Below, one piece after another: positions 1 to 40,072 of a DNA stretch of 64,000 nucleotides. Source of the stretch: a virus. Lineage: Duplodnaviria > Caudoviricetes. Location of the stretch: the IMG/VR virus record IMGVR_UViG_2862784999_000001, positions 1 through 64,000 of that record. The stretch is one strand, 5' to 3'. The notes below the pieces were generated by a model. That model made no database searches. It had not been told where the DNA came from and was given only the letters and a program-made list of their open reading frames with translations. Numbering within the stretch: position 1 is the stretch's first letter; each line of letters opens with the position of its first letter. The translations under genes and the position numbers were made by a program.

Positions 1-126
1 TCATTGAGGATCTTGACTGGCCGCTCCTTCGCTGGTCAAAGAGTTATCGGCGATCCGCTCATGGTGTCTGATCACTTCAGCGATGATGAAGGTGAGGAGC
101 TTCTCGGCGAAGGCCGGGTCCAGTTC
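1..126 (-). pseudogene. Orphaned 3' fragment of a chorismate mutase gene (integration target, att junction)
   Basis: Minus frame reads ELDPAFAEKLLTFIIAEVIRHHERIADNSLTSEGAASQDPQ* with TGA at 3-1. This matches the C-terminus of actinobacterial AroQ-type chorismate mutases as I recall it; the similarity stops upstream of LDPAF. Confidence 0.75.
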
Positions 127-249
127 TGACCTCGCGCTCTTCCGCAACGCCCCAGCTAGGCGGCATCGCCCTCGAACGGCGAGCCCTCCCCGACGTCCTG
201 GGAGTACCTCCGGAGTTCATTGCGGATGTCGTCCGCCTACCTCTAGTCG

Positions 250-268
250 TCCCCTAAAAATCCCCTAA
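250..268. repeat. Direct repeat TCCCCTAA x2 at 11-bp spacing, probable integrase arm-type sites
   Basis: TCCCCTAA at 250-257 and 261-268, about 130 bp inside the putative att core. Confidence 0.5.
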
Positions 269-477
269 GGGATCACTGGATTGCTGCAGCTCAGGGCAGC
301 CAAGAAGAGACAGGCGGCCCCCCACACTCCTGCCGGCCAGGCGTGAGGGGCCGCCCCAAGTGCCGAGCCATCACCGAGGGGGGGCTAATCCGTAGGTGAC
401 GGCCCGACACGCTCGTGGGGTTCGACCTGTCTCCTTGCCGGATGGATGCAGGTCGATGCCTTGATTCACTCGATCGA

Positions 478-493
478 GCGAACGGGCGTTCGA
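478..493. promoter_or_regulatory. LexA/SOS-box-like site
   Basis: GCGAAC-GGGC-GTTCGA, one mismatch to the actinobacterial consensus TCGAAC-N4-GTTCGA. Confidence 0.5.
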
Positions 494-644
494 ATCTTGC
501 ACACTACAGCCACCCCTGCGGCGTTCTCCATAGCGCGCAGAGCTGAGAGCTGCAGCGACGCACCTCGGGTGGCGCGTTTCAAGATCGAATATTGCCCGGT
601 AAACCGGGCTGACTTATGATCATCTTCGGCAGAGCGTTTGTCAC

Positions 645-881
645 GTGCCCCGCCTGCCCGATGACGACTCCTGGCTGCTCCGTGAGCGCCGCGCCATCGG
701 CGACCGCATCCGCATCAGGCGCCTTCACGAGAACATGACCCAGGAGACCGTGTTCCTCGCAGCCGGCCTGTCGCGCTCCGCCTATCAGGACATCGAGGCA
801 GGCAAGACCGACGCGCGCATCGGCTCCCTGCATCGGATCGCCTGGGTCCTCGGCGTGCACGTGACGGACCTCCTCCGCTGA
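645..881 (+). CDS. XRE-family HTH transcriptional regulator
   Basis: IGDRIRIRRLHENMTQETV...GLSRSAYQDIEAG...LHRIAWVLGV is an HTH_3 pattern. Confidence 0.85.
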   Translation: MPRLPDDDSWLLRERRAIGDRIRIRRLHENMTQETVFLAAGLSRSAYQDIEAGKTDARIGSLHRIAWVLGVHVTDLLR

Positions 882-1075
882 AGTTGAATCTTTGTCAAGA
901 GAAGACCATGACGCGAGACCGGAAACAAGCTTGTTGGGTGCATTTATCTGACCAATATTGGTCCACACCACCGATGTCCGTAACCGGTTGCGTATGCCCT
1001 GGCCAGGACTTTTCGGGACTGGTATCGGTTAACTGTCGCTTACTCGGCGTTTGACCGACCGTTCAGTACCGGCCA

Positions 1076-1303
1076 TCACGCGCCGCGGGCGATGGACCGT
1101 AAGGCCCGCGCGGCGATCCCCTGCCACAGCTCGTACAGTCGGGCCCCGTCGGGGCAGGCCTGGTCGATGTCCTTGCATGGCTTGCAGCTTCGGCAGTGCT
1201 GCACGTAGACGTTCCACGCGGCCGTCGGCGGCGACAGCTTCCCCCGGCCAGCCGACGCCTGTCGGCTTCCCGTGGGGGGTTCGGGGTCTCTACGCTCGTC
1301 CAC
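1076..1303 (-). CDS. Small Cys-rich hypothetical protein
   Basis: HCRSCKPC...CPDG motif; divergent from the GntR gene. Confidence 0.5.
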   Translation of the reverse strand: MDERRDPEPPTGSRQASAGRGKLSPPTAAWNVYVQHCRSCKPCKDIDQACPDGARLYELWQGIAARALRSIARGA

Positions 1304-1438
1304 GTCGACGCTCCGCTTGCCGGTTGGTTCCCCGGCCGTGCATGGCGGGGCTGTTTCAGCAGCTTAGACATAGCATGCTATGGCGTGCCACGTATGCGAC
1401 CGCTCGCGTGGCATGGGATGGCGTGTCACGTTGACCGT

Positions 1439-1684
1439 GTGATCGAATTCGAGGCGGATGTGCCCAGGTGGAAGCAGGTAGCCGAGGTGATCCGTGGACG
1501 GATCGCGGACGGCACCTATGCGCCCCGCACTCGTGTCCCCTCGGTCGTTCAGCTCGCCACCGAGTTCGGGATCGCGCAGGCGACCGCACAGAAGGTTCAC
1601 CGCGGCCTCCGCGACGAGGGCCTCATCTACACGGAGCCGGGCCTCGGATCGTTCGTCTCCAGCCGGCCTCCTGCCGAGGGCTGA
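1439..1684 (+). CDS. GntR-family winged-HTH regulator (HTH domain only)
   Basis: PRWKQVAEVIRGRIADGTYAPRTRVPSVVQLATEFGIAQATAQK...LRDEGLIYTEPGLGSFV; GTG start chosen at 1439. Confidence 0.88.
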   Translation: MIEFEADVPRWKQVAEVIRGRIADGTYAPRTRVPSVVQLATEFGIAQATAQKVHRGLRDEGLIYTEPGLGSFVSSRPPAEG

Positions 1685-1717
1685 CCGCTGTCACACCCGG
1701 CGGCTACGCTTTGATCT

Positions 1718-1906
1718 ATGTCCTCCCCTCCCCCGCTCCCGGGTTCCGCGCGGCCTGCCGACGTGGTGAATGAGGAGATCCGCGCCCTGATCACGCGGGC
1801 TGGCGGCTGGCTGTACGGGGAGACGCGGCAGCGGTACGAGGTACTGCGCGACGAGTGGACGGTCGCGACGGCCGCTGAACGCGGGGACATCGTCGAAGCG
1901 GCATAG
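1718..1906 (+). CDS. Hypothetical protein
   Basis: 62-aa ORF with ATG start, followed by a terminator hairpin. Confidence 0.65.
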   Translation: MSSPPPLPGSARPADVVNEEIRALITRAGGWLYGETRQRYEVLRDEWTVATAAERGDIVEAA

Positions 1907-1914
1907 AGTGCATG

Positions 1915-1951
1915 GCGAAGCCCCGGCCACTAGACCTGGCCGGGGCTTCGC
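1915..1951. terminator. Bidirectional hairpin terminator
   Basis: GCGAAGCCCCGGCCA-N7-TGGCCGGGGCTTCGC between convergent genes. Confidence 0.75.
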
Positions 1952-1962
1952 TGTGTCCTGCG

Positions 1963-2175
1963 TCAGGCGTCAGGGATGTCGGCGGCGGTCACGGTCTCGA
2001 AGTGCCACCATCGGCCGTCTTCCCACTTCATGACTTGGGCGGTGTCGGCGCCGGAGCGGAGTCCGGTCCGGACGTGCGCGAACGCCTTGGCCTCGCTGGT
2101 GTGGCCGATCTCGGCGAGCTGGGCGCCGCCTTGGGAGAGGATCACTCGCCAGGGCTCTCGGGGCTTTGCGGTCAT
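1963..2175 (-). CDS. Hypothetical protein
   Basis: 70-aa ORF with an RBS-like GAGG; downstream of 2183-2482. Confidence 0.7.
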   Translation of the reverse strand: MTAKPREPWRVILSQGGAQLAEIGHTSEAKAFAHVRTGLRSGADTAQVMKWEDGRWWHFETVTAADIPDA

Positions 2176-2182
2176 CGGTGCC

Positions 2183-2482
2183 TCACTTTTCGTGGATCTT
2201 GCGGGCGTGGTTACGGATGCTGAGGGGTGCTCCTGCGTACTCGCAGTTCGGGCAGATTTCCCAGCCGCCTTCGTCGACGGCGGCGTCGAGGACGGACTTG
2301 TCGGGGCCGAAGCCGTGGTGGCTGAGGAGGCGGGCTACGGAGCTGTCGTAGCGGGCGGCGAGGAGGGCGGCTTCGGCGACCTTGTCGTGGCCTCGGCAGA
2401 AGAAGGCGCCGAGGCTGGTGGTGCCGCCGCAGCCGCACCAGCAGGTGCCGGTGGGGAGTAGGCGGGGTGTCTCGTTGGTCAT
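2183..2482 (-). CDS. Zn-binding hypothetical protein
   Basis: CWCGC...FCRGHD motif and a C-terminal CPNC...H..H. Confidence 0.75.
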   Translation of the reverse strand: MTNETPRLLPTGTCWCGCGGTTSLGAFFCRGHDKVAEAALLAARYDSSVARLLSHHGFGPDKSVLDAAVDEGGWEICPNCEYAGAPLSIRNHARKIHEK

Positions 2483-2490
2483 GAAATCAA

Positions 2491-2514
2491 GATAGCCAAT
2501 CTAGATTGGCTATC
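2491..2514. promoter_or_regulatory. Perfect 24-bp palindrome over a probable leaderless promoter
   Basis: GATAGCCAATCTAGATTGGCTATC; the minus strand reads TTGATA-16-TATCTT-6-ATG(2482). Confidence 0.65.
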
Positions 2515-2586
2515 AAGATGGACTAGGAAAGATACGCACCCCGATGGACCGTGCGCCGGGACGGGCATGTCGCCCCGGCGGCGTGA

Positions 2587-3096
2587 TCAGACGTCGAGGA
2601 TGATCCCGAGCCCCATCAGCCGGCCGGCCATAGTCGACCTGGTGAGGTCGAAGCGTGGGGCGAGTAGGTCGACGAGCTGAGCGGCAGTCCGGAAGTCTGC
2701 CTCGACGGCCGCGCTCCGGACCGCCGTCTCGGGGGCGAGGAGTTCCAGGGCGAACCGGTTGGCCTCGGTCTCCTCGCGGTCCGTTGGCAGGCTGGCCAGG
2801 TTGCCCAGAGCGTGGCGTTCGACGGTGTCGAGGATCAGGTCACGCCGCCGGTGAAGTTGCAGATGCCCGACGAGGTGGGCGAGGGCGAACCGCTGCCGGG
2901 TCGGGTCCAGGTCCGCGTTGATGCCGATGACGGTTTGATCGTCGCGGCGCACCAGCATCCCGGACAGTTCGACGGGGGCCGGCTGGCGGACGACGGTGGC
3001 ACCGAGCCGTTCCGCGACAGCCTCCGGGTCTACTGGAAGCCCGCTGGCGGGGCTCTCCTGAACAAGCTGTCGTGCCGCTGCCTCACCTCGCGCCAT
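2587..3096 (-). CDS. ImmA/IrrE-family metallopeptidase-like protein, catalytic Glu absent
   Basis: PVDPEAVAERLG...IGIN...RQRFALAHLVGH...ETEANRFA; the HExxH motif appears as HLVGH. Confidence 0.85.
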   Translation of the reverse strand: MARGEAAARQLVQESPASGLPVDPEAVAERLGATVVRQPAPVELSGMLVRRDDQTVIGINADLDPTRQRFALAHLVGHLQLHRRRDLILDTVERHALGNLASLPTDREETEANRFALELLAPETAVRSAAVEADFRTAAQLVDLLAPRFDLTRSTMAGRLMGLGIILDV

Positions 3097-3295
3097 ACCG
3101 TCCCCTTCGCCGCAGCGGCGTGAAGAGGCCCCGTCCGCGAGGGACGGGGCCGTCTGCGCGGAGTCTGCGACCCGTTGCCTCGCAGCACTGGCGGCGCGCA
3201 CCGCCTTCGGTCGTCCCCGTCGCCGGCGACTTCCTACACGGGCCCGGTGAGACCTTGCCCCGCGCCCGGGGTCCGGCGTTCGCGTCATGCCGTGG

Positions 3296-3508
3296 CTACG
3301 AGGGTAGCTGGTATCGCCTCCCGCAGGACATGCATCGCGGCTTGCCGTGGTAGCCGGTGACGGTGCCGCCGTTCGTCATGCAGACGGCGCCGTTGGGTGC
3401 CGTGTTGTCGCCGTCGAGGAGGAACCAGGCCTCCCCGCATCCGCAGACTGCTCCGTCGTAGGCGGGCTGGGCAGCCTCGGACCTACGCTCATCAAGGTTG
3501 ATGGTCAT
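3296..3508 (-). CDS. Small Zn-ribbon hypothetical protein
   Basis: CGCG...CMSCG. Confidence 0.6.
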   Translation of the reverse strand: MTINLDERRSEAAQPAYDGAVCGCGEAWFLLDGDNTAPNGAVCMTNGGTVTGYHGKPRCMSCGRRYQLPS

Positions 3509-3575
3509 GGATCAAGGCTCGGCTACCGGGAGTGCCGCTTCAAAGGGGAACCGGTGAGCAACCTATGATCCCGGG

Positions 3576-3779
3576 GTGGCTATCGAACTCCCCCCGGACC
3601 TGATTGCGCTGGAACGTTCCGCCTGGACGGAGATTCAGGCTGGTGCGCTGACCGTGGACACGGCGCGGGCCGTGCACGAGGGGATCGCCGCGTTCGCTGC
3701 CGAGGCGGGGCACGCTCGGTACGCCGTCGAGATGGGGCTCAAGCAGACCGTGCGGCATCCGGAGCCCGAGGCGGCCTGA
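3576..3779 (+). CDS. Hypothetical protein
   Basis: 67-aa ORF with typical high-GC codon usage. Confidence 0.65.
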   Translation: MAIELPPDLIALERSAWTEIQAGALTVDTARAVHEGIAAFAAEAGHARYAVEMGLKQTVRHPEPEAA

Positions 3780-3780
3780 C

Positions 3781-4086
3781 CTACTCCGCCGCCTTGAGCG
3801 CCCGCTCGATGACCTCGTCGAATGAGCTACCCGCGATTCCGAGGCGCCCCAGGATCAGAGGCTCGCGTACCTGCTCCTCGGCGGCAGTCAGCCGGTCGTC
3901 GCGGCGCATCGCGCGCCACGTCCGGAAACCGAGCTCGTACTCCTGTGCCGACGAGTACGCGTGCCGGTGCGGCGCCTCGACACGCTCCCCCAACTCGCCA
4001 GCGGTGTACGGACGTCCCGAGTCGGTGTGTTCTTGGTCGTAGCCCCAGCGCACCGAGCAGCCGGGACCGTGCTTGCGGCAGTTCAC
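3781..4086 (-). CDS. Hypothetical protein
   Basis: GTG start overlaps the upstream stop (GTGA). Confidence 0.5.
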   Translation of the reverse strand: MNCRKHGPGCSVRWGYDQEHTDSGRPYTAGELGERVEAPHRHAYSSAQEYELGFRTWRAMRRDDRLTAAEEQVREPLILGRLGIAGSSFDEVIERALKAAE

Positions 4087-4433
4087 GGCGCCTCGCAGCG
4101 GTGGATACGGGTAGCGACAGGCCCCTGCCAGCTGTGAACCTCGACGGTGTCGCCGCGGCAGTCCTTCGTCAGGCAGATGGTGCGGCCGGGCCGGATCGGG
4201 CGCTCGGGCGACTCGTCGGCTAGGCCGAGTTCGCGCTCCAGGCGGGCGATGCGCGCGTAGTCCGGGCGGGCCGCGGCTGAGGCCGGGCGCCGCCAACTGT
4301 GGCGGGCGAGAGACTCCCAGATCATGTATGGCCATCGACAGAACAGTGGGGCGTTCGGCTGCTCCCCCACCAGCGCGAAAACGGCGGCAGCCGCACAGCA
4401 GAAGATCCAGACGTTGACTGGGATCTCAGGCAT
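4083..4433 (-). CDS. Hypothetical membrane-anchored protein
   Basis: GGAGGG RBS before the ATG; hydrophobic N-terminus; PDYARIARLERELG. Confidence 0.55.
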   Translation of the reverse strand: MPEIPVNVWIFCCAAAAVFALVGEQPNAPLFCRWPYMIWESLARHSWRRPASAAARPDYARIARLERELGLADESPERPIRPGRTICLTKDCRGDTVEVHSWQGPVATRIHRCEAP

Positions 4434-4565
4434 CGACGCGCCCTCCAAAGTCGTCCGCCCCGCCCGGTCTCTCAGCGGGCGGGGCGGCACCGAGTAGCTG
4501 CCCAATAGCTCTGCATACTGGACAGTTGACCGCCAGTTTACGGGCCGCCACCGACAACTCGGCGG

Positions 4566-4805
4566 TCAGCGCGTCGAGATGCGGTACTCGTCGACCGGCG
4601 GGTGCTGCTCGTCCGGGTCGATGACGTCGGGGATCTGGTCGACCCACCACGGCATGTCAGTGCGCGCTTCGATCCACGTCCGCTGCCGCCCGGCCAGCTC
4701 GTGCGCGTAGCCGTTCATCAGCGTCCGCGCCTCGTCCTCGCTCACACCAGCCGCGAGCAGGCGAAGCCAGAGAGCCATCGACGGAGACTTCGGATCCAGA
4801 CTCAT
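4566..4805 (-). CDS. Hypothetical protein
   Basis: 79-aa ORF; AHELA...IPDVIDP motif resembles small actinophage proteins. Confidence 0.55.
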   Translation of the reverse strand: MSLDPKSPSMALWLRLLAAGVSEDEARTLMNGYAHELAGRQRTWIEARTDMPWWVDQIPDVIDPDEQHPPVDEYRISTR

Positions 4806-4826
4806 GCGGCCAGGATGGCAGAGCGG

Positions 4827-5033
4827 TCAGTCCTCGTCGGGCCACCTGTGGATAACCGTCCCGGTCGCGGTGTCGGTGAGGGTGATGACGGCGCCCTCGA
4901 CACCCCAGTCCCGCACCCACACGGGGATCTGCTTCCTCGCCGCGGTCTCGGTTGCCCACCAGCCGCGCATCGTGCGACGCCCGCCCATCGTCAAGGTCAG
5001 GCGGTAGCGGCCCTCGTCATCCATGCTGCTCAT
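4827..5033 (-). CDS. Hypothetical protein
   Basis: RYRLTLT...MRGWW...ITLTD...WP; overlaps the upstream ORF. Confidence 0.65.
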   Translation of the reverse strand: MSSMDDEGRYRLTLTMGGRRTMRGWWATETAARKQIPVWVRDWGVEGAVITLTDTATGTVIHRWPDED

Positions 5034-5355
5034 CCTCGAGCAGGACGTGGAGCGGGACGCGCGCCTCGAGCGCCGCGTCGCGAAGAACGGCGAGTACTTC
5101 CTCGAGCGGCGCTGGCGGCCCTGCCGGTTTCGGTGTCGTCGCCACCATGCAGGCGATGCACCGGTCCACCCAGAAGCGGCCCCGGCCGGGAACGTCGGCT
5201 ACGCCGGCGACAGCCGCGGCGCGCCCGCAGCGGAGGCAGGCGCGTCCCTCGGCGAGGCGTCGCTTGCCGCTCGAGCGGAACGGGGCATCGGCGGGCGCCA
5301 GCTCGAGGTCGTCAACTGTGACGCCGAAGAGAGGCAGCAGGTCAGGGCTGTGCAT
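5017..5355 (-). CDS. Zn-finger hypothetical protein
   Basis: GGGAGG RBS; CLRC...RFWVDRCIAC. Confidence 0.6.
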   Translation of the reverse strand: MHSPDLLPLFGVTVDDLELAPADAPFRSSGKRRLAEGRACLRCGRAAAVAGVADVPGRGRFWVDRCIACMVATTPKPAGPPAPLEEVLAVLRDAALEARVPLHVLLEDEQHG

Positions 5356-5418
5356 GCTGTCCTCCCGTTGCTCGAGCCCGATGTGACGGTCGCAGCGTAC
5401 AGCCCTACTATCGAACAT

Positions 5419-5754
5419 GTGAACGACCCTGTCTTGTCCAGACTCGAGCAGCTCCGGTTCCTCGAGCGCGTCCAGCTCGCCGACCTCGAGCGCACCCAGC
5501 GCTGGATCGCAGCCGAAGAACAGCGGCAGCTCGAGCGGCGACGAGGCGAGCAGGCACGGCCGCCCGCCCCGGACTGGCTCCTCGAGCAAGGACTCAATGG
5601 CGGCCGACCCGTGTACGTCCATCGCGGCGACTGTCACATGGCGGGCAAGCGGCGGAGCGGCATCACCGAGGACCAGGCGCGCCAGGCCCTGCGGGAGCAG
5701 GTGGCCGCCTGCGCTCACTGCCGACCGGACACCGATCTCGGCCTGCTGGAGTAG
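5419..5754 (+). CDS. DUF6233-like protein
   Basis: N-terminal coiled coil; PDWLLEQG...VHRGDC...CAHCRPD; TACTAT -10 box and an SOS-like TCGAAC just upstream. Confidence 0.75.
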   Translation: MNDPVLSRLEQLRFLERVQLADLERTQRWIAAEEQRQLERRRGEQARPPAPDWLLEQGLNGGRPVYVHRGDCHMAGKRRSGITEDQARQALREQVAACAHCRPDTDLGLLE

Positions 5755-5794
5755 CCGACGGGCAGATACTCGAGGGCGGCGGCAGGCTGATCGC

Positions 5795-6661
5795 ATGGAC
5801 TTCCCCGTCGATGTCGCTCTCGCCGAGGCGGTGCCGCGCCTGCCCACGGGGGACGGCTGGTGGTACGAGGTGAAGTTCGACGGGCACAGAGCCGTGATCT
5901 GGCGGGAGGCAGAGACGGTCCGAGCACAGGCCCGGTCCGGGCGGGACGTGACCCGGGCGTGGATGGATCTCGCGGTCGCCGCACTCCACACTCTCCGGCC
6001 GGGCACAGTCCTCGACGGGGAGGCGGTCATCTACAAGGGCGGTCGCGTCGACTTCAGCGCCGCGCAGTCCCGGGCCGCCTCATCCCCGTCGCGCGCCCGG
6101 CAGCTGGCCGCAGAGTGGCCGGCCACCTTCGCCGCGTGGGACATCCTCCGCCACCCCGACCACGGCGACGTCCGAGGCCGCCCGTACACGGAGCGCCGCG
6201 GCCTCCTCCTCGACCTCCTCGAAGACGTTCCGCCACCCATCCAGGTCGTGCCCGCCACCGACGATCCGACGGTGGCGCAGGCCTGGTACGAGACGCTCCA
6301 CGACGTCGGCATCGAGGGAATCGTCGCGAAGCGGGCCGGCAGCCCGTATCGGGCCGGGCGGATCTGGCAGAAGATCAGGCATGCCGACACCGTCGACGCG
6401 CGGGTCATCGGTCATACCGGGCCCGCCGCACGGCCGCGCGCCCTCGTCGTCGAACTCCCCGACACACGGCACCGGCTGTCGCAGGCACTCACCGCGCCGC
6501 TCGCCGCAGCCGTCGCCGCACACATCGCCACATCCGGGCCCGGCCGGCGGAACCGCACCCGGGACCTCGGCAGCTACACCACCGTCGCGCCCGGGCTCAC
6601 CGTCGAAGTGCTGGCCGGCACCACGCGGCACGGGGTCGTCACGGTGACGCGAGTCCGGTGA
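5795..6661 (+). CDS. ATP-dependent DNA ligase (minimal LigC/LigD-ligase-like)
   Basis: YEVKFDGHR (KxDG adenylation motif), LDGEAV, AWDIL, EGIVAKR, WQKIR. Confidence 0.9.
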   Translation: MDFPVDVALAEAVPRLPTGDGWWYEVKFDGHRAVIWREAETVRAQARSGRDVTRAWMDLAVAALHTLRPGTVLDGEAVIYKGGRVDFSAAQSRAASSPSRARQLAAEWPATFAAWDILRHPDHGDVRGRPYTERRGLLLDLLEDVPPPIQVVPATDDPTVAQAWYETLHDVGIEGIVAKRAGSPYRAGRIWQKIRHADTVDARVIGHTGPAARPRALVVELPDTRHRLSQALTAPLAAAVAAHIATSGPGRRNRTRDLGSYTTVAPGLTVEVLAGTTRHGVVTVTRVR

Positions 6662-6687
6662 GCCACTGCGTGGCGCTAGGCTGAAAT

Positions 6688-6726
6688 AACGATGCCCCGC
6701 CTGCTTGCTTCAGGCGGGGCATCGTT
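6688..6726. terminator. Bidirectional hairpin terminator
   Basis: AACGATGCCCCGCCTG-N7-CAGGCGGGGCATCGTT between convergent genes. Confidence 0.8.
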
Positions 6727-6742
6727 TAGTCGTGAGGGCCGG

Positions 6743-6940
6743 TCAGGCGTCGCGGAGGTCGTTGTTGCGGTACGGCCCGTCGGCTGCCATCGACGCGACC
6801 TCGTAAGCACGTCGGGCTTCCGCGGCTCCGAGGGCAAGCTGTTCCGCGATGGCGTGGGCGTCACCAGCGGCCTTTTCCAGGCGGAGCGCCGCGGCATAGA
6901 GGGCGTTGATCAGGTCGGGCGCGGAGTCCGGGGTGGCCAT
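6743..6940 (-). CDS. Hypothetical protein
   Basis: 65-aa helical ORF. Confidence 0.55.
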   Translation of the reverse strand: MATPDSAPDLINALYAAALRLEKAAGDAHAIAEQLALGAAEARRAYEVASMAADGPYRNNDLRDA

Positions 6941-6944
6941 CGGT

Positions 6945-7130
6945 TCAGTCCCGGCCTACGACGATCACCGGCTGGCGCTTGGGGTAGGTGACCTTTTCTC
7001 CACTGGAGTAGGTGACGATGACCATTTGCGCCTGGTCCTCGACCCTGTCAACGAGGTACGGCAGTGGGTCATCCTCGCGGATAACTCGGTCGTTGCGGGT
7101 GAGGCTGTCTGCGGTGGCGATGCTGGTCAT
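6945..7130 (-). CDS. Hypothetical protein (SH3-like beta pattern)
   Basis: GGGGAG RBS before ATG at 7130. Confidence 0.55.
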   Translation of the reverse strand: MTSIATADSLTRNDRVIREDDPLPYLVDRVEDQAQMVIVTYSSGEKVTYPKRQPVIVVGRD

Positions 7131-7249
7131 TTCCGTCTCCCCTGCTTGCCATTCGTTTCTGTTCAACAAGAATGACGGGCGCAGCGCTCCTTGTCAACTC
7201 GTCACGCCAGATGGATGCTAGATTCTGTTAAACACAAACCGAGGGGGGA

Positions 7250-7441
7250 ATGATGGGACGACCCGCCACCGGGCAGACCAAGGTCATGGGCTTCCGGCCA
7301 CCCAAGCCGCTACGCGACGAGTTCGAGCAGTTGGCCGCAGCCGAGGAGCGCACACCGTCCGACGCCCTCATCGAAGCCATGCACGACTGGGTAAAGAAGA
7401 AGCGACGCGAACGAGAGACGCCCGGTAAGGCTGAGGCGTAG
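7250..7441 (+). CDS. Ribbon-helix-helix (CopG/Arc-like) DNA-binding protein
   Basis: MGRPATGQTKVMGFRPPKPLRDEFEQLAAAEERTPSDALIEAM. Confidence 0.75.
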   Translation: MMGRPATGQTKVMGFRPPKPLRDEFEQLAAAEERTPSDALIEAMHDWVKKKRRERETPGKAEA

Positions 7442-7475
7442 AGCGACTGTCAGACCCGGCGGCGATACTCACCCC

Positions 7476-7661
7476 ATGGCGATCACGATGAAGAACTACG
7501 GCCTCACCTGGACCGAGCCTGACGGTACGAAGCAGGCGTCCGGCGTCAGCTACGACAAGGCCAGCGCCGAGGACCGGAAGAAGCGGCTCATTGCGGCGAA
7601 GTGCACCGACGTCGAGATCGTCGAGGTGAAGCCCGGGGAACGGCTCCAGCCCGCAAGCTGA
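7476..7661 (+). CDS. Hypothetical protein
   Basis: 61-aa ORF with strong GC3 bias. Confidence 0.7.
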   Translation: MAITMKNYGLTWTEPDGTKQASGVSYDKASAEDRKKRLIAAKCTDVEIVEVKPGERLQPAS

Positions 7662-7840
7662 CAGCCGCATGGCCTCCCGTGGGGAGCCGGGAGGAGCGGC
7701 GGGCCCCGCACACGGCAACGCAGCGGGGCCCGAACGACATCCCGCCCGGGGGTGGATCGAGAAGCCGCACCACCACCATGCACCCGAACCAGCCACCGCG
7801 ATAGATCACGGCCGGAAACAGGTACACATCGAACCTGCGA

Positions 7841-8203
7841 TCAGTGATCCTTCGCCATGACTCGGACGAGATCGGTCAGCGCCCGTCGCTGGCCATCCGG
7901 CAGCAGGGCCATCATGCTCAGCAAGTCCGCGGCCTCACCGGTGACATTCCACGGCAGGTGCAGGTCAAAGAACTGTGCAGCGGCAGCCTCCCGAAGAGAG
8001 GCCACGTCTACGCGCAGGCCAACCGCCATCCCAGCCAGCGTTGCCGCGCTCGGTGCGACGACGACCTCTCCCGTCTCCAGGCGATGCAGCCAGGCCGACG
8101 ACACCGACGCTCCCGCTTCGGTGCAGGCCGCGGCGAGCGAGTGGTACGAAAGCTTCAACTCGCGACGTCGCGCCTTCACCAGTTCCCGCAGCTCGTCCGC
8201 CAT
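7841..8203 (-). CDS. XRE-family HTH regulator
   Basis: LRELVKARRRELKLSYHSLAAA...VSSAWLHRLETG; GAGGGAG RBS. Confidence 0.8.
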   Translation of the reverse strand: MADELRELVKARRRELKLSYHSLAAACTEAGASVSSAWLHRLETGEVVVAPSAATLAGMAVGLRVDVASLREAAAAQFFDLHLPWNVTGEAADLLSMMALLPDGQRRALTDLVRVMAKDH

Positions 8204-8450
8204 GGCCCTCTCCCTCAAAAGACAGACCCGCCTCGGCAGGGGCGCGAGGCAGGTCCGCAGCAGTCTGGCACGAGGGGCTGACAGGCGGGACGGCCTTCGC
8301 CTACCGTGATCAGGCGGCCACCGTGTTCGCAACCCCCCTTCGGGGCGGGGTCCTTCGGGACGCTCGGTGGCCGCACCTGACCTTGGAGGGGACGTGAGCG
8401 ACACCACGTGGGGCCTCAGCGACACCGCCTGGGGCTGAGCCAGACAGCAC

Positions 8451-8485
8451 AACGCCCCCGCAGCCGGCATGGCTGCGGGGGCGTT
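8451..8485 (-). terminator. Hairpin terminator after the recombinase/Endo VII operon
   Basis: AACGCCCCCGCAGCC-N5-GGCTGCGGGGGCGTT. Confidence 0.7.
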
Positions 8486-8492
8486 CGCGCGT

Positions 8493-9065
8493 TCAGAGCC
8501 CGATGTCTTCCGATGCCTTGGCTAGCGGGTTCCAGTAGCGCGCCTGAACCGTGAGGATCGCCGCAGGTGGCCGCTCCCGATATCTCCGGTACGGCCCGGC
8601 GTCCCGGAACGCTTCGGCGGTGTTGCACCTCTGACATAGCAGCCCGCGAACGAGCCCGGTCGCATGGTCGTGGTCCGTGACGAGGGTGGTTGTTGCGGAG
8701 CAAATCGCGCACCTGCTGGCCTGCCACTCTTCGATCACGGCGAGCCCGTGAACGTCCGGATCGGAGTCTCGGAGCGCGACCTCGTTCGGTAGGTCCCAGC
8801 TCCAGCATGCAGGCGCCATTCCCTCAATCCTCCGACGCACCTCTTGCTCCGCAGCTTCAGCGGCTGCCACCTCGCGGTCATATTCGGCGCGCTCCTCCGA
8901 AGTGAGGTGGCGCAGGCAGGAGCGAGGCCGCCCCTCACGCTTCGGTAGGCGCCAATACGCGAGTGGACTCTGCTGGCAGGCGGTTCCCCGCTTGGTGAGC
9001 CGGCCGCAGGGCGGTGGCGACGAGTAGGCAACCGTGTCCACGTCGAACGGGAACTTGTAGGTCAC
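8493..9065 (-). CDS. Recombination endonuclease VII-domain protein
   Basis: CAIC...DHDHATGLVRGLLCQRCN; N-terminal CGRLTKRGTAC; GTGA-coupled to the recombinase. Confidence 0.88.
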   Translation of the reverse strand: MTYKFPFDVDTVAYSSPPPCGRLTKRGTACQQSPLAYWRLPKREGRPRSCLRHLTSEERAEYDREVAAAEAAEQEVRRRIEGMAPACWSWDLPNEVALRDSDPDVHGLAVIEEWQASRCAICSATTTLVTDHDHATGLVRGLLCQRCNTAEAFRDAGPYRRYRERPPAAILTVQARYWNPLAKASEDIGL

Positions 9066-10219
9066 GGTCCCTCCTTGGATGCTGGGCGAAAGCGATCGGC
9101 GATCCCCCCGAAGAGGGCTTCGGCTGCGTCGACGTGAGCGGCGTTTCGTTGGCCCTTGTTGCGGCGCTTCCAGTAGCCGACGGTGGTGGCGGGGTTGTCG
9201 TGGTCGGCAAACGCCTGGACTTCGGCGAGGTCGACGTGATCGTCGAGCATGTGCGTGATCCGGCTGGCGCGTAGCACGTGCGGGGTGAGCTTCCGGCAGG
9301 ACTTGCACTTGGTAAAGCTGTGCTTCTCCGGCCCGTCGACCTGCGCGCAGGTGAGGACGCGGGCCTTTCGGCCAAGGCGGGTGAGGAGCCGGGCGATGTC
9401 GTGTCGGTCGAGGCGCTGGCCGGCGGAGTCGAGGAGCAGCGCCTTCTCTGTGCGTCCTGCGGTGTGCGCATCGAGGAGTTCGGCGACGGTGACGGGGAGC
9501 GGCAGGATCCGCTCCTTGTGTTCCTTACGGGTGACGTCGAGGTACGAGCGTCGTCCTCGTTCGATCCGGTCGGTGACGTCGGCGGCGCACATCTCGGAGA
9601 CGCGTCCGGCGAGGGTATAGAGGAGCAGGACGATGAGCGCGTCGAACTCGTTCTCCGCTGCCCGAACTACCGCTTGGACCTCGCCGACCTCAAGGACGGG
9701 CGTACTGCGGGAGGTGTTGCCCTTGTCGACCTTGGGCCGGTCGTCTTGGGTGACGGGGTTCCTGGGGAGGTCGATCTTCTCGGCGGCGTAGGTGTGCAGC
9801 GAGGAAAGCGCGTTGAGGTAGCGGCTGATCGTGGTCGGCGGAGTGCCACGGCCTTCCATCCGTAGTCGCCAGGCGCGGATGTGGTCGGCGGTGAAGCAGC
9901 CGAGGGCGAACCGTTCGTGGCCGAGCTCTTGGGCGTACCCGCCCCAGACGCGGCGGATGTCGTCGACGTAGTTGCGTTTGGTCTGGAGGCTGCCGCGGCG
10001 GGTGGAGGATAGCCAGTCCATGACCATGACGAAGGTGTCGGGGGTGACGGCTTCGGCGAGGAGTTCGGCGCGGGGCCGGTAGATGCGCTTCTGCCCTTGG
10101 CGGCCGACTTGGACCATGCCGAGGTCGTCGACGAGCTTGCGGCGGACTTCCTCGAACAGGTCTGAGCCGGGCAGCGCGATCGAGCGCTCGGTGCACTGTG
10201 TGGCGAGCTGGTCGGTCAC
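9062..10219 (-). CDS. Tyrosine recombinase (Xer/Cre-like resolvase type)
   Basis: Core-binding domain (TKRNY..D; TISRYLNALSSL) and catalytic residues R (GRVSEM), K (TRKEHKER), HxxR (HVLR), H (ADH), Y (TTVGY). Confidence 0.92.
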   Translation of the reverse strand: MTDQLATQCTERSIALPGSDLFEEVRRKLVDDLGMVQVGRQGQKRIYRPRAELLAEAVTPDTFVMVMDWLSSTRRGSLQTKRNYVDDIRRVWGGYAQELGHERFALGCFTADHIRAWRLRMEGRGTPPTTISRYLNALSSLHTYAAEKIDLPRNPVTQDDRPKVDKGNTSRSTPVLEVGEVQAVVRAAENEFDALIVLLLYTLAGRVSEMCAADVTDRIERGRRSYLDVTRKEHKERILPLPVTVAELLDAHTAGRTEKALLLDSAGQRLDRHDIARLLTRLGRKARVLTCAQVDGPEKHSFTKCKSCRKLTPHVLRASRITHMLDDHVDLAEVQAFADHDNPATTVGYWKRRNKGQRNAAHVDAAEALFGGIADRFRPASKEGP

Positions 10220-10220
10220 G

Positions 10221-10586
10221 TCACTGTCCCGTAGAGACGTGGATGGACTCGCCCGGCCGGTTGGCGGTGATCGGGAAGTCGTAGGCGCCGAGGATGGTGA
10301 CGAGGGCTCCGTGCATTGCCCGCTGCGCTGCCGTGTAGCGCGCTCGCACCTCCTTGCCGCCTTCATCTTCGAAAGCGATGGCGAGTCGGTCGTGGACCTC
10401 CCAGCGGACCAGGATGCAGCCGAGAGTCATGTCGGCGGTGACTGCCGCGCCTCCCGGGTCGTTTCCGTCGGCGCTCGGATCGGCGTCCATGTTCAGGAGG
10501 TTGATCCCGGCGTCGACAAGGGCGGCCCGCACGGCGTCTTCCAGGTCGATCAGAGCAGGCGTGCACTGAGGCTGAGTCATAGTCAA
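10221..10586 (-). CDS. Hypothetical protein, first gene of the recombinase operon
   Basis: Lies between the dif-like site and the recombinase, ending 2 bp from the recombinase start. Confidence 0.6.
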   Translation of the reverse strand: MTMTQPQCTPALIDLEDAVRAALVDAGINLLNMDADPSADGNDPGGAAVTADMTLGCILVRWEVHDRLAIAFEDEGGKEVRARYTAAQRAMHGALVTILGAYDFPITANRPGESIHVSTGQ

Positions 10587-10589
10587 ATG

Positions 10590-10618
10590 CTAGCGCATAA
10601 GGGAACGTTATGCGCTAG
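10590..10618. other. dif/loxP-like recombination site
   Basis: Perfect 11-bp inverted arms CTAGCGCATAA / TTATGCGCTAG around the asymmetric 7-bp spacer GGGAACG. Confidence 0.75.
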
Positions 10619-10644
10619 GCTGCCGTCTCGACTAAGGGGGATGA

Positions 10645-10824
10645 ATGAGGATTGATCAAGCGATCGACGAAGTGCTGGACGCGATCGGCGACGACCCGGA
10701 GTATGCCGAAGCCCGCCGCGAGCTGGACGCGGCATCCGACGCGCTACGCACCGGCACCACAGCCGAGGCGCACTCCCACCTCGTCACCGCGAATCGCCTC
10801 CTGGCTGAGGCTTGCCCAATTTAA
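10645..10824 (+). CDS. Small helical hypothetical protein (59 aa, not in the ORF track)
   Basis: AAGGGGG RBS; MRIDQAIDEVLDAIGDDPEYAEARREL...CPI*. Confidence 0.6.
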   Translation: MRIDQAIDEVLDAIGDDPEYAEARRELDAASDALRTGTTAEAHSHLVTANRLLAEACPI

Positions 10825-10840
10825 TGCCGCACAGACGGAT

Positions 10841-10877
10841 CGCCCCCGCCCGCCTGCCGAAGCAGGGGGCGGGGGCG
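10841..10877. terminator. Hairpin terminator at the end of the late/lysis operon
   Basis: CGCCCCCGCC...GGCGGGGGCG between convergent genes. Confidence 0.65.
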
Positions 10878-10881
10878 TTCG

Positions 10882-11040
10882 TCACCCACTCTCGGGCGGG
10901 TAGTCGGGTTCGAGGAACGGGCTGATCGACGGTGCCGGCGTCGGCTGCTCGTCGAGGCGGCCCATCTCTTCGAGGGTGTCCGCGTCCGCCGCGGCATCGT
11001 CGCGGCGGGGCCGCATCGGGATCGGCTCAGGCTGGGGCAT
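10882..11040 (-). CDS. Small acidic Pro-rich protein (52 aa) at the end of the lysis cassette
   Basis: GGAG RBS; MPQPEPIPMRPRRDDAAAD...PPESG*. Confidence 0.5.
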   Translation of the reverse strand: MPQPEPIPMRPRRDDAAADADTLEEMGRLDEQPTPAPSISPFLEPDYPPESG

Positions 11041-11054
11041 TCGCACTCCAGTTC

Positions 11055-11408
11055 TTACACGTCGATGGAGTCGAGGTAGGGCCGGGCCCGTTCCGGGATC
11101 GGCCGCGGCAGCGGCGGTTCGAGCCCCGACTTGCGGATGTAGGACACGAGTCTGCGCCGGTCCACGACCAGCCAGGAAATCGCGGCACCCTGCCCGGTGA
11201 TCTGCTCCTGCTTCACGACAGAGTCCGATTCGAGTTCACTGATCCGGCTCCCCTGGCGGCCGATCTCCTTCTCCATACGGTCGGTGACCGCGGTGAAGTC
11301 ATCCCGCTTCTCCTGCCGCTTCGTCCGACGTGCGGACCGCGCGGAGACGACGCCGCCAGCTGCCGCGACCACCGCCATCCCCGCCTGAACCCAGGTGTCT
11401 ACGCCCAT
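11055..11408 (-). CDS. Lysis-associated membrane-anchored coiled-coil protein
   Basis: N-terminal TM segment (AGMAVVAAAGGVV) followed by a coiled coil; TAATG coupling. Confidence 0.75.
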   Translation of the reverse strand: MGVDTWVQAGMAVVAAAGGVVSARSARRTKRQEKRDDFTAVTDRMEKEIGRQGSRISELESDSVVKQEQITGQGAAISWLVVDRRRLVSYIRKSGLEPPLPRPIPERARPYLDSIDV

Positions 11409-37708: not shown

Positions 37709-37903
37709 TTACTCGGCGGCTTCACGGCCGTCGAGGCTGTGGTGGGTGTAGACCCAGCCGTCGGATCCGTCACCCATCGGGCTGGGGCTGGGCGTGGGTC
37801 CGCACGGGCAGAGGTCGGTGAGGTCGCGGACGAGCAGGTCGTCGAGCGGGGCGACGTGGACTTCGTTGCCGCCGGTCTGCTTGGCCAGCCACTGCCCGCT
37901 CAT
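37709..37903 (-). CDS. Small His/Cys-rich hypothetical protein
   Basis: HVAPLDDL...CPCGP...HHSLDGRE; ATGA-coupled to the epimerase gene. Confidence 0.65.
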   Translation of the reverse strand: MSGQWLAKQTGGNEVHVAPLDDLLVRDLTDLCPCGPTPSPSPMGDGSDGWVYTHHSLDGREAAE

Positions 37904-38766
37904 GCGGCGAGCGCCCGCGCGATGCCTTCTTCGAGGCTGACGCGAGGCTGGTACACGTCGAGCATCCGCTTCGGGTCGCACACGCGGTGGTGGACGCCTT
38001 GGGGTGCGGTGGCGAGGTGCTTCAACTCGGGCTGGTAGCCGGCTGCGATAGTGACGAGGCCGGCGAGTTCGTCGAAGCTGGTCGCCCTGCCCCAGCCGAT
38101 GTTCATCGGCCCGGTGGCGTCCTGGTCGACGGCTGCGAGGGTGGCGCCGACGAGATCCGAGATGTGCACCCAGTCGCGCGTGCTACTGCCGTCGCCCCAG
38201 ATCTCGAACGGATCCTGCCGCTCGCGGGCCCGGCGGATGAACGCGGGGAACGGGTAGCAGTCGTCTTGATCTTCGCCGTAGCCGGAGAACGGCCGCAACG
38301 AGTGGACGCGGCAGCCTTCGGCTTCGGCGTACTGGGCGAGCTGCTCCCCCGCGAGCTTGGCGAGCCCGTAGGTCGCGTCGGGTCGTCCGGGCTGCTCGTA
38401 GTTGATGTCCGTCTCGACGAGCCGGTGGATCTCGCCGGGCTGCTGAAGCGCGACCGGGTAGGCGGCTGAGCTGGAGAAGTAGACGGCGCGCGGGGTGCCG
38501 GTGCGGATCAGCCACCGGAAGTACCAGGCGTCCAGCGCTAGATTGGTGGCGACCCCGAGCGGCGATCCGTCGATGCTGGCCCGGCCGCCGACGACTGCCG
38601 CGCAGTGAATGGCGAGGTCGTAGGGCCGCTGGTCGAAGCGGTACAGATCGAGTGCGTCGCGGCCGTCGATGAGGTCGACGCCGGTGACATCGTCGCCTCG
38701 CTCGTCGAGTGCGGCGTGCAGGTGGCGGCCGACGAAGCCCCGGTGGCCGGTGAGGAGAACGCGCAT
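37900..38766 (-). CDS. NAD-dependent nucleotide-sugar epimerase/dehydratase (extended SDR)
   Basis: LLTGHRGFVG (GxxGxxG), FSSSAAY, YGLAK (YxxxK), IWGDGSSTRDWVHISD. Confidence 0.93.
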   Translation of the reverse strand: MRVLLTGHRGFVGRHLHAALDERGDDVTGVDLIDGRDALDLYRFDQRPYDLAIHCAAVVGGRASIDGSPLGVATNLALDAWYFRWLIRTGTPRAVYFSSSAAYPVALQQPGEIHRLVETDINYEQPGRPDATYGLAKLAGEQLAQYAEAEGCRVHSLRPFSGYGEDQDDCYPFPAFIRRARERQDPFEIWGDGSSTRDWVHISDLVGATLAAVDQDATGPMNIGWGRATSFDELAGLVTIAAGYQPELKHLATAPQGVHHRVCDPKRMLDVYQPRVSLEEGIARALAA

Positions 38767-39365
38767 CAGCCGGCTGCCTTGACGGCCCGGTAGACGCCCC
38801 AAGGCAGGTGGCTGTCGATGGGCTCCAGTCCGATCCGCGCGCACGCCTCGTCCTGCTGTTCCTTGGACCAGGTGGTGACGCCGATCCAGCTGTCGGCTTC
38901 GGCGGGCTGGTCGCTGAGTGGCCAGTCGAGGACGAGGATCCCGCCGAGTTTCGTCGCGGCCCGCAGCTTGGCGACGATGTTGAGGCAGTCGCTGTAGCTG
39001 TGGTGGATGAGGACGGCGAGGCTGTAGACGGCGTCCATTCGGCGGCGGCCGAGGTGCTTGGCGATGCCGTCGGCGTCTGCGAGGACGGCGTCAGCGTCGG
39101 GGAGGCGTTCGGCGAGCCGTTCGAGCATGCGTGGCGAGGAGTCGACGGCGGTCACCTCGTAGCCGAGGACGGTCATGGGGATGGCGACGCGGCCGTCACC
39201 GCAGCCGAAGTCGAGCACCTTCGCCCCGTCGGGGATGACGGTGGCGAGCATCTCCGCCTGGTCCTGCCCGGACTCCCAGTACGCGTCTTCGGACACGCGG
39301 CGGAGCGGGTGAATCGCTTCGGGGTCGGCCTGATCCCAGGCCTGGATGACAGCTTCGGCGGTCAC
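38766..39365 (-). CDS. Class I SAM-dependent methyltransferase
   Basis: VLDFGCGDGR, AVDSSPRML, DAVYSLAVLIH, GGILVLD. Confidence 0.92.
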   Translation of the reverse strand: MTAEAVIQAWDQADPEAIHPLRRVSEDAYWESGQDQAEMLATVIPDGAKVLDFGCGDGRVAIPMTVLGYEVTAVDSSPRMLERLAERLPDADAVLADADGIAKHLGRRRMDAVYSLAVLIHHSYSDCLNIVAKLRAATKLGGILVLDWPLSDQPAEADSWIGVTTWSKEQQDEACARIGLEPIDSHLPWGVYRAVKAAG

Positions 39366-40072
39366 GCTGCCTCCTCGACGAGCTTCCGCAGCTTGACGAG
39401 GTCGGCTTCGAGCCCGCCGTTGTCGCGGTAGTCGATGTAGGCGGCGCCGTCAGCCTGGGAGCGTTCCGGGCTGTTGCAGTCCTCGTAGACGGCGTCGAGG
39501 CTGGCCTTCCCGGCGGCCGGGTGCAGGTGCTCGATGACCATGTCGTCGAGGTAGGTGATCCGTCCCATGCCCTTCCCCCAGTCGAGCCAGACGAGGTCGA
39601 GGCAGAGGTGGACGAGCTGTGGCGGCGCCATGTAGTCCAGCGTCGTGACGATGTCGGAGGTCATTGCGACGGCGGTGGCCATGGCTTGGCCTTGGAGCAG
39701 GTCGTTGCCGTAGACGATGCCGGGGCCGCCGGACAGGCACTCCCGGATCCGGGCGTCCCACGCCATCGTTGCGGCCCGGGGCCGGTGGTCGTCGCCCATG
39801 AAGGCGAGGTACCGGTAGTTGGGGGCGTTCTTCACCGCGGCCTGGTTGAGGGTGCCGCACAGCCGCTTCCGCGCCCAGAACACAAACCGCACCCGCTGGT
39901 CGTCGGCGAGATCCTTCGCCAGCGCCTTGTACGCGGCAAGCTCCGGATCGTCCTTGTCGACACAGAACAGCAGGTCGGCGGTCGCCCCGGTGTCGTCCCA
40001 CGCCTGCACGATCTCGGGCACGGCCTGGGGTCGGCCGCGGGTGGGGATGATGACGAGCAGGTCGTCGGCCAT
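39362..40072 (-). CDS. GT-A fold (family 2-like) glycosyltransferase
   Basis: LLVIIPTRGRP, FMGDDH (DxD-like), IEHLHP. Confidence 0.88.
   Translation of the reverse strand: MADDLLVIIPTRGRPQAVPEIVQAWDDTGATADLLFCVDKDDPELAAYKALAKDLADDQRVRFVFWARKRLCGTLNQAAVKNAPNYRYLAFMGDDHRPRAATMAWDARIRECLSGGPGIVYGNDLLQGQAMATAVAMTSDIVTTLDYMAPPQLVHLCLDLVWLDWGKGMGRITYLDDMVIEHLHPAAGKASLDAVYEDCNSPERSQADGAAYIDYRDNGGLEADLVKLRKLVEEAA

Follow-up and report, generated by a model that had tools for sequence, protein, structure and literature searches.

The site and the recombinase operon

The DNA analyzed here, referred to as the window, is a stretch of 64,000 nucleotides (nt) that makes up the first 64 kb of the 86,583-bp IMG/VR virus record IMGVR_UViG_2862784999_000001 (Duplodnaviria; Caudoviricetes; 68% G+C). 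The subject of this study is a short palindrome in the window and the tyrosine recombinase operon that it precedes, which an earlier note, made from the sequence of the window alone, had described as a Cre/lox-like module with its own dif-like site. The palindrome was present at positions 10590-10618, with the sequence CTAGCGCATAA-GGGAACG-TTATGCGCTAG. It has two 11-nt arms that are 100% complementary to each other and an asymmetric spacer of 7 nt, and its conserved core spans 10591-10617. Such an arrangement, with 11-nt arms, 6 or 7 nt between them and an inner TAA/TTA, typifies the core sites of tyrosine recombinases, and an overlap of 7 nt is of the lambda integrase type. The site lies between a divergent open reading frame (ORF) of 59 amino acids (aa) on the plus strand and the operon on the minus strand, and no array of arm-type repeats was found around it. 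The window contained a single copy even when three mismatches were allowed, as the note had claimed, and none occurred in 100 shuffled sequences; a search of the whole 86,583-bp record, which the note had called for, also returned only this copy.

The operon was said to begin 3 bp from the site. This holds for a TTG at 10586, but not for the ATG at 10580, which is 9 nt off and whose position is kept in relatives. A -10-like hexamer, TAGCAT (10592-10587), overlaps the last 3 nt of the site and is followed, after a further 6 nt, by the ATG of the first gene (10580-10578). The same place in the 13 close relatives described below is occupied by TAGAAT in seven loci and by TAGCAT in one. A sigma-70 scan of 8300-11100, which requires a -35 element, found no promoter. 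The overlap of the site with a -10-like hexamer 6 nt before the ATG suggests a leaderless transcript, with a putative promoter and start at 10578-10592 on the minus strand, and makes it plausible that the operon is autoregulated through the site. Several other roles for the palindrome were considered and rejected. As a single strand it folds only modestly (-11.7 kcal/mol, z score of -2.9), and it lies between divergent genes and is kept in either orientation, arguing against a terminator or RNA hairpin as its main role. An inversion switch was rejected on the basis of there being only one site per record, and a protelomerase site was judged to be incompatible with the asymmetric spacer.

The first gene of the operon, ORF1 (119 aa, 10580-10224), had no Pfam, PHROG, or NCBIfam match. 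It is separated by 1 nt from the GTG start of the recombinase gene (385 aa, 10219-9065; PF00589 with an E value of 3.4e-16 and PF02899 with an E value of 1.2e-5), which in turn overlaps the third gene by the sequence GTGA. The third gene encodes a 190-aa protein with an Endo VII (HNH) domain (9065-8496; PF02945 with an E value of 9.6e-14 and matches to endonuclease VII PHROGs) and, judging from this overlap, is translationally coupled to the recombinase gene in this operon. A G+C-rich hairpin at 8452-8485 on the minus strand, after the Endo VII stop codon, is likely to be the operon terminator; the terminator scan passed over it for want of a T run.

The recombinase comprises a SAM-like N-terminal domain (PF02899) and a catalytic domain (PF00589). 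Residues R206, K235, H314, R317, H340, and Y349 were invariant in 28 sequences with identities down to 36%, and the PF00589 domain together with this R-K-H-R-H-Y set places the protein in the tyrosine recombinase family. The best NCBIfam models were XerC, XerA, and XerD; all three scored far below their cut-offs (for XerC, 95.6 bits against an equivalog cut-off of 335.15; for XerD, 76.5 bits against 329.6), and the protein is therefore not an XerC/XerD orthologue. Sequence matches in the PDB were to XerA (4a8e, E value of 4.3e-11) and XerD (1a0p). The AlphaFold model (predicted local distance difference test score of 86) gave as best folds XerA (5hxy at the top), Cre-lox complexes, Tn1549 Int, XerH (5jk0), and the lambda Int core, and it included an extra N-terminal helix and hairpin at residues 19 to 57. 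Apart from this addition the features resemble those of a simple recombinase, with PF02899 and PF00589 domains, no repeat arrays, and one flank of the site not kept, and the putative binding site has two inverted arms around a spacer within the expected 6 to 8 nt (11-7-11). The window enzyme also carries a 17-residue insertion with three cysteines (C-x14-C-x2-C) at residues ~289 to 306 (window 9300-9360), which the homologue from locus L014 also has and the other aligned members (A1, A2, and plasmid homologues) lack. The family comprised 368 clusters at an E value of ≤1e-10 among 8000 candidates scored, labelled by their sources only as 'tyrosine-type recombinase/integrase' or 'XerD'. The literature searched yielded no description of a function for this recombinase family.

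Conservation of the site with the recombinase

Thirteen IMG/VR loci encode recombinases that are 79 to 90% identical to that of the window. The 27-bp core, TAGCGCATAA-CGTTCCC-TTATGCGCTA, was identical in 12 of these and had one mismatch in the 13th, with one copy per record. It was located upstream of the recombinase gene with the spacer in the same orientation in the 12 loci whose flanks were read, and the same holds for the remaining one, L008. Homologous DNA shared by the window and these relatives was limited to the site with ~20 nt next to it and to the recombinase gene, stopping 20 to 45 nt short of the recombinase stop codon. The ~20 nt on the gene side (10568-10589) contain the -10-like hexamer, the ATG, and the first three codons (M-N/T-Q), beyond which the ORFs are unrelated, and the far-side flank is likewise unrelated between loci. 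Between site and recombinase, the relatives have zero to two unrelated ORFs of 95 to 288 aa, the last of which overlaps the recombinase start by 4 nt in most of the loci listed, and the gene after the recombinase also varies.

This pattern does not bear out the proposal of a three-gene unit in which recombinase and Endo VII are coupled. ORF1 had no homologue in 103 related loci. The Endo VII gene had no DNA homology in the 13 close relatives, and an Endo VII protein homologue followed the recombinase in only three other elements among the 103 loci (L063, L051, which is the same as L192, and L202). Since neither ORF1 nor Endo VII is kept, the unit consists of the site and the recombinase rather than three genes, and the comparison marks ORF1 and Endo VII as exchangeable passengers of the operon.

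The spacer was examined by scanning viral, genome, and metagenome contigs for both arms separated by any 7 nt. Of 17 stretches on viral contigs, 15 had this spacer, one differed from it by 1 nt, and one was unrelated. Among the 15 stretches on genome contigs, this spacer was found in all 10 from Streptomyces or Kitasatospora, and other spacers in the five from other taxa. On metagenome contigs there were 20 stretches, 16 with this spacer and four, from other taxa, with other spacers. Ten of the arm-pattern matches (L029, which is the same as L066, L036, L037, L041, L042, L049, L050, L053, L064, and L068) had other spacers, lay outside the actinomycetes and had no recombinase match, and they were set aside as unrelated. 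Two of them, L041:386-432 (Brevundimonas) and L042:1886-1932 (Sphingobium), have the 10-nt arms TAGCGCATAA/TTATGCGCTA around other spacers inside larger nested palindromes (ttatgcggtt...aaccgcataa), with no recombinase match in the locus, and probably represent an unrelated element.

In all four distinct loci encoding recombinases of 61 to 67% identity (L051, which is the same as L031, L065, L067, and L070), the same 27 bp was found inverted relative to the gene, directly before it and without cargo. The asymmetric spacer is thus kept when the site is inverted, suggesting that it is conserved for its own sake and not as part of an oriented promoter element. Inversion would abolish the function of a promoter element, and binding of a symmetric dimer to an operator would place no constraint on the spacer, while a core site for recombination explains both.

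A profile search recovered 31 more distant viral relatives (35 to 73% identical), many of them on contigs of ~90 to 99 kb. A candidate site was present within 1.5 kb upstream in 16 of the 31 and in none of the equal downstream windows, against 0.4 predicted from shuffles. Examples include a site with CCGCATAA arms and a CGTTCAC spacer at 56% identity and sites with GCCCATAA arms at 52 to 55%. Homologues 41 to 51% identical over ~90% of the length were also found on Streptomyces and Kitasatospora plasmids and plasmid-phages. Nine plasmid records were examined, of which eight are circular and one, pFP3, is filed as linear. In two of the nine, pFP3 and CP108844, parA adjoins the recombinase gene, and pFP3 also has a terminase gene. 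A similarly built site with a 6-nt spacer lies 12 to 16 nt before the operon start in six of the nine: two have AGCCTCTTAA arms with the spacer CGTGAA or TCTGAA, one reads AGCGCATAA-CGTGAA-TTATGCGTT, and in three a CGTGTG spacer separates GCGCATAA or ACACATAA arms. Grouped by arm, AGCCTCTTAA occurs in two of the six, the GCGCATAA type in three, and ACACATAA in one. In total, the analysis turned up at least five types of site. The arms differ by recombinase clade, as expected for cognate pairs, so that the sequence comparison upholds the pairing of site and recombinase suggested in the earlier note, the two being conserved together while the arms vary by clade.

Sites with the same spacer were also observed near recombinases of two other Xer-like lineages, referred to as types B and C, whose genes take the same place in related prophages. 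Type B enzymes, which had no significant BLASTP similarity to the window enzyme, had such sites in 10 of 67 loci, and type C enzymes, ~27 to 33% identical to it, in 4 of 28. The arms were degenerate, both being perfect in only 1 of the 14 (L080). In seven loci (L127, L130, L090, L132, L152, L168, and L172), asymmetric sites are located just after type B or C stop codons and consist of the conserved spacer and one conserved arm with a different second arm, as in CCAGGACTTAA-GGGAACG-TTATGCGCTGC. Each of the five such records searched (L090, L127, L130, and L132, plus an eighth such locus, L091) had one copy. These one-armed sites could be relics of recombinase gene replacement, hybrid products, or real sites. 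In the window itself, the end of the Endo VII gene (codons for ASEDIGL and the stop), together with the hairpin (8452-8520), matches the 3' ends of many type B recombinase genes, as though most of a type B gene had been replaced by Endo VII with its tail and terminator retained. A type B gene in an IMG/VR provirus from an isolate genome (L134:4890-5120) is interrupted by three palindromes, at ~4918, 5016, and 5089. These palindromes, CTTCGTATA-ATGTATGC-TATACGAAG, we take to be loxP, which suggests that the strain was engineered and carries Cre/lox scars.

The surrounding prophage and its probable integrase

The record represents a temperate phage of the siphovirus type whose hosts are Streptomyces-like. 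The minus strand of the window carries genes for the small and large terminase subunits (33.1-31.0 kb), the capsid (28.0-27.1 kb), a tape-measure-sized protein of 1709 aa (23.1-17.9 kb), an endolysin (13.6-12.2 kb), and a holin (12.2-11.8 kb). The portion from 64 to 85 kb of the record encodes replication proteins (DnaB, DnaN, an AAA_24 ATPase, a PD-(D/E)XK nuclease, and a C5 methylase) and a CI/Cro-like helix-turn-helix (HTH) pair. The record DNA had no match in the phage collection, and the closest annotated phage integrases were ~30% identical to the 385-aa recombinase. In a comparison with sequencing runs, no RNA run was listed as containing this DNA, and no DNA run covered more than 0.06 of the sampled words.

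Another tyrosine integrase of 417 aa, located beside the HTH pair, is encoded outside the window at record positions 85,296-86,546 (L005:10296-11546), ending 34 nt before the end of the record. It was recognized by phrog_1 (E value of 1.1e-28), had no Pfam or NCBIfam match at the thresholds used, and showed no significant similarity to the 385-aa recombinase. At the opposite end of the record, 48 codons from the 3' end of a chorismate mutase gene (4-147, minus strand; NCBIfam NF006691, E value of 3.8e-11, with a score below the family cut-off for what is only a fragment of the gene) mark the attachment (att) junction, and this fragment and the 417-aa integrase gene face one another across the record ends. 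An integrase gene opposite the 3' fragment of a host gene is the usual layout for an att site in the 3' end of that gene, and the 417-aa protein is likely to be the true prophage integrase. No serine recombinase domain was found. The site lies 10.4 kb from the junction at the chorismate mutase fragment, in agreement with the distance of about 10 kb given before. The claim that the 385-aa recombinase is not the prophage integrase was also substantiated, with another integrase at the att junction and the site not duplicated, and that role for the enzyme was rejected on the basis of the integrase at the att end and the single intact copy of the site.

The copy number was the same elsewhere. There was one site per virus record in 14 of 14, and the 15-nt site center occurred once in each of the five prophage-carrying host genomes, so that the core is not duplicated at the prophage ends. 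Across 401 Streptomyces genomes, the 15-nt core was found in only three, once each. With so few occurrences and no duplication, neither a conserved chromosomal partner nor an att-type duplication is apparent.

Other genes around the operon were also examined. The 59-aa ORF on the far side of the site (10645-10824, plus strand) has a homologue of 52% identity directly downstream of the recombinase gene and on the same strand in L013 (3315-3500); compared with the window, both its side of the site and its orientation are reversed. Between the operon and the att end are genes for an ATP-dependent DNA ligase (5597-6661), a DUF6233 protein (5023-5754), an Arc-like repressor (7250-7441), and an HTH_31 protein (7841-8110). 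Parts of the region at 150-10,600 are also present in the right arms of related prophages. A tandem satellite element in this region was considered, and comparison of the left end with the rest gave no att-like repeat, only chance matches of 13 to 15 nt. Between the terminase region and the early genes (37900-40072) are genes for a NAD-dependent sugar epimerase and an S-adenosylmethionine methyltransferase, possibly moron or DNA modification genes.

Proposed function of the site and the recombinase

We incline slightly toward reading the module as a recombinase of the Cre/loxP or single-Xer kind with its own dif-like site, resolving circular multimers. Its two parts differ in strength: that the site and the enzyme belong together seems quite probable, and the chances of a role in resolution appear about even. 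In the mechanism we propose, each of the two 11-nt arms would be occupied by a recombinase monomer. Two such sites, carried on a dimeric or multimeric circle of phage or plasmid DNA, would then come together in a synapse, and exchange of strands across the 7-nt spacer would release monomeric genomes. While bound, the site would also keep the recombinase operon switched off. The prophage would in this way have a second recombinase that acts on circular replicative or plasmid forms, in a host with a linear chromosome and presumably without an Xer system of its own.

Simple recombinases of phages and plasmids with a private site are already a known kind, as represented by Cre/loxP, plasmid resolution systems, and the single-Xer systems; Cre/loxP resolves P1, and Xer/dif resolves chromosomes. 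Like Cre/loxP of P1, the module has a single, apparently simple, tyrosine recombinase borne by a phage and a palindromic core with an asymmetric spacer, located by the gene and present once per genome, and the proposed role, resolution of circular multimers, is the same. The predicted fold matched Cre-lox complexes with a target-normalized TM (template modeling) score of ~0.66 and a root mean square deviation of ~4.8, although the identity to Cre in structural alignment was only ~15 to 17%. It also differs in having 11-7-11 geometry rather than the longer arms of loxP, in residing in an integrated prophage with a separate integrase, whereas P1 is a plasmid prophage, and in that the site appears to lie on the recombinase promoter. 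The single-Xer systems (archaeal XerA/dif, XerH/difH, and XerS/difSL) provided the best sequence and fold matches and, like the proposed module, use one enzyme and a nearly palindromic dif-like site with inner TAA/TTA. In XerS and XerH, the dif-type site adjoins the gene. The window enzyme differs in being a non-orthologue found on phages and plasmids rather than acting at a chromosome terminus, in the 7-nt spacer, and in the predicted extra N-terminal helix and hairpin. The dif site of XerC/XerD similarly is a terminus site, controlled by FtsK, with a 6-nt central region, in contrast to the prophage site with 7 nt. The Streptomyces plasmid homologues (pFP3, pCQ4, and others) belong to the same protein family at 41 to 51% identity, with a similarly built site in six of nine and two located by parA, but they have 6-nt spacers and partly different arms and are annotated only as 'tyrosine-type recombinase/integrase'. 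With lambda-type integrases the module has in common the tyrosine recombinase fold and the 7-nt overlap, and as in many actinophages, with annotated integrases at ~30% identity, the gene is located to the right of the lysis genes. It differs from them in its perfect symmetric palindrome, in the lack of arm-type repeats, att duplication, or a conserved chromosomal partner, and in the presence of another integrase at the att junction.

The occurrence of homologues on circular plasmids, in two cases by parA, fits multimer resolution in an extrachromosomal phase; plasmid resolution systems typically lie on circular replicons near partition genes, whereas the window's own record is integrated. The earlier suggestion of an extrachromosomal or conjugative phase gains from these homologues in its first part only, as no conjugation genes were found here among the ORFs scanned. 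One site per record, as in plasmid resolution systems, also holds here. The plasmid pSLE1 (PMC4487206), which resembles pZL12, is circular, measures 86.4 kb, and encodes ParA/ParB and two putative integrases. The passages of PMC11894783 consulted made no mention of Xer in Streptomyces.

Several observations weigh against this interpretation. The element is integrated in the chromosome and has what appears to be its own integrase, ParA/ParB were not found among the ORFs scanned, which were part of all ORFs, and the proposal presupposes a circular phase for resolution to act on. Three of the nine plasmid homologues and 15 of the 31 distant viral relatives had no candidate site, and the spacer is 7 nt here compared with 6 nt in the plasmid relatives. 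The same-spacer sites near type B and C recombinases could mean that the site is not specific to the window enzyme. In favor of the interpretation, no XerD equivalog above the cut-off (329.6) was found in any of the five host genomes (best match of ≤85 bits), although this is a weak test of whether the hosts lack Xer, as the model passes the cut-off in only 4 of 14 control genomes; three of the hosts' best matches to the XerD model were the prophage recombinases themselves.

The palindrome might instead be an operator or promoter element only, to which the recombinase, in the role of repressor, or some other regulator of the phage or host binds without recombination. It always heads the operon and overlaps the -10-like hexamer, conservation extends ~20 nt toward the gene, taking in the ATG and the first three codons, and like sites occur upstream of operons that end in the unrelated recombinases of types B and C, all of which an operator would account for. 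It would not account for an asymmetric spacer that is 100% conserved and kept upon inversion of the whole site, for the clade-by-clade variation of the arms among plasmid and phage recombinases, for the 11-(6/7)-11 geometry with inner TAA/TTA of a core site, or for the invariant catalytic residues, and we regard this explanation as unlikely. Alternatively, the Xer recombinases of the host could use the site, as happens with elements that exploit XerCD, and the phage enzyme would have some other role; this would fit the likeness of the arm to the XerC arm of E. coli dif claimed in the earlier note. In every case, however, the site accompanies a recombinase gene of a phage or plasmid, and with the XerD result in the five host genomes this makes such a use highly improbable.

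An exchange or attachment function has more in its favor and is a minor but real possibility. The site could be a second attP used to integrate at another target, or a shared crossover point where co-resident phages, or a mobile cassette of site, cargo, and recombinase, exchange genome arms. Relatives lose homology precisely where the site ends on its outer side, diverged lineages carry an identical spacer, which partners in exchange would need to have, the one-armed sites after type B and C stop codons look like hybrid products, and the overlap is 7 nt. However, no second or hybrid copy was present in any of the 14 virus records or five host genomes, the 15-nt core was missing from all but three of the 401 Streptomyces genomes searched, so that no conserved partner is apparent in the chromosomes, and arm-type repeats are lacking. 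The homologues located by parA on plasmids also argue against exchange, and phage mosaicism alone can set breakpoints at conserved islands. A more specific form of this idea, which we consider quite unlikely, is that the 27-bp site is a crossover point shared by a guild of Streptomyces temperate phages and plasmid-phages, at which the recombinase joins and re-cuts any two genomes that carry it, such as those of a resident prophage and an incoming phage. It would explain the homology break at the site edge, the spacer identity across lineages and orientations, the variable cargo, and the hybrid-looking sites. If it were true, the late-gene arm would be swapped against the lysogeny arm and cargo would be captured behind the site, so that phage mosaicism would have its own site-specific driver, equipped with an expression slot like that of an integron.

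If the site and the recombinase prove to be an active pair, they would constitute a compact recombinase with a 27-bp site native to high-G+C actinomycetes, and the relatives with different arms and spacers could be mutually orthogonal tools alongside Cre/loxP for Streptomyces genome engineering. An active pair would also show how circular phage and plasmid genomes stay monomeric in hosts with linear chromosomes that apparently lack XerCD, and it would give a function to a large family labelled 'tyrosine-type recombinase/integrase'.

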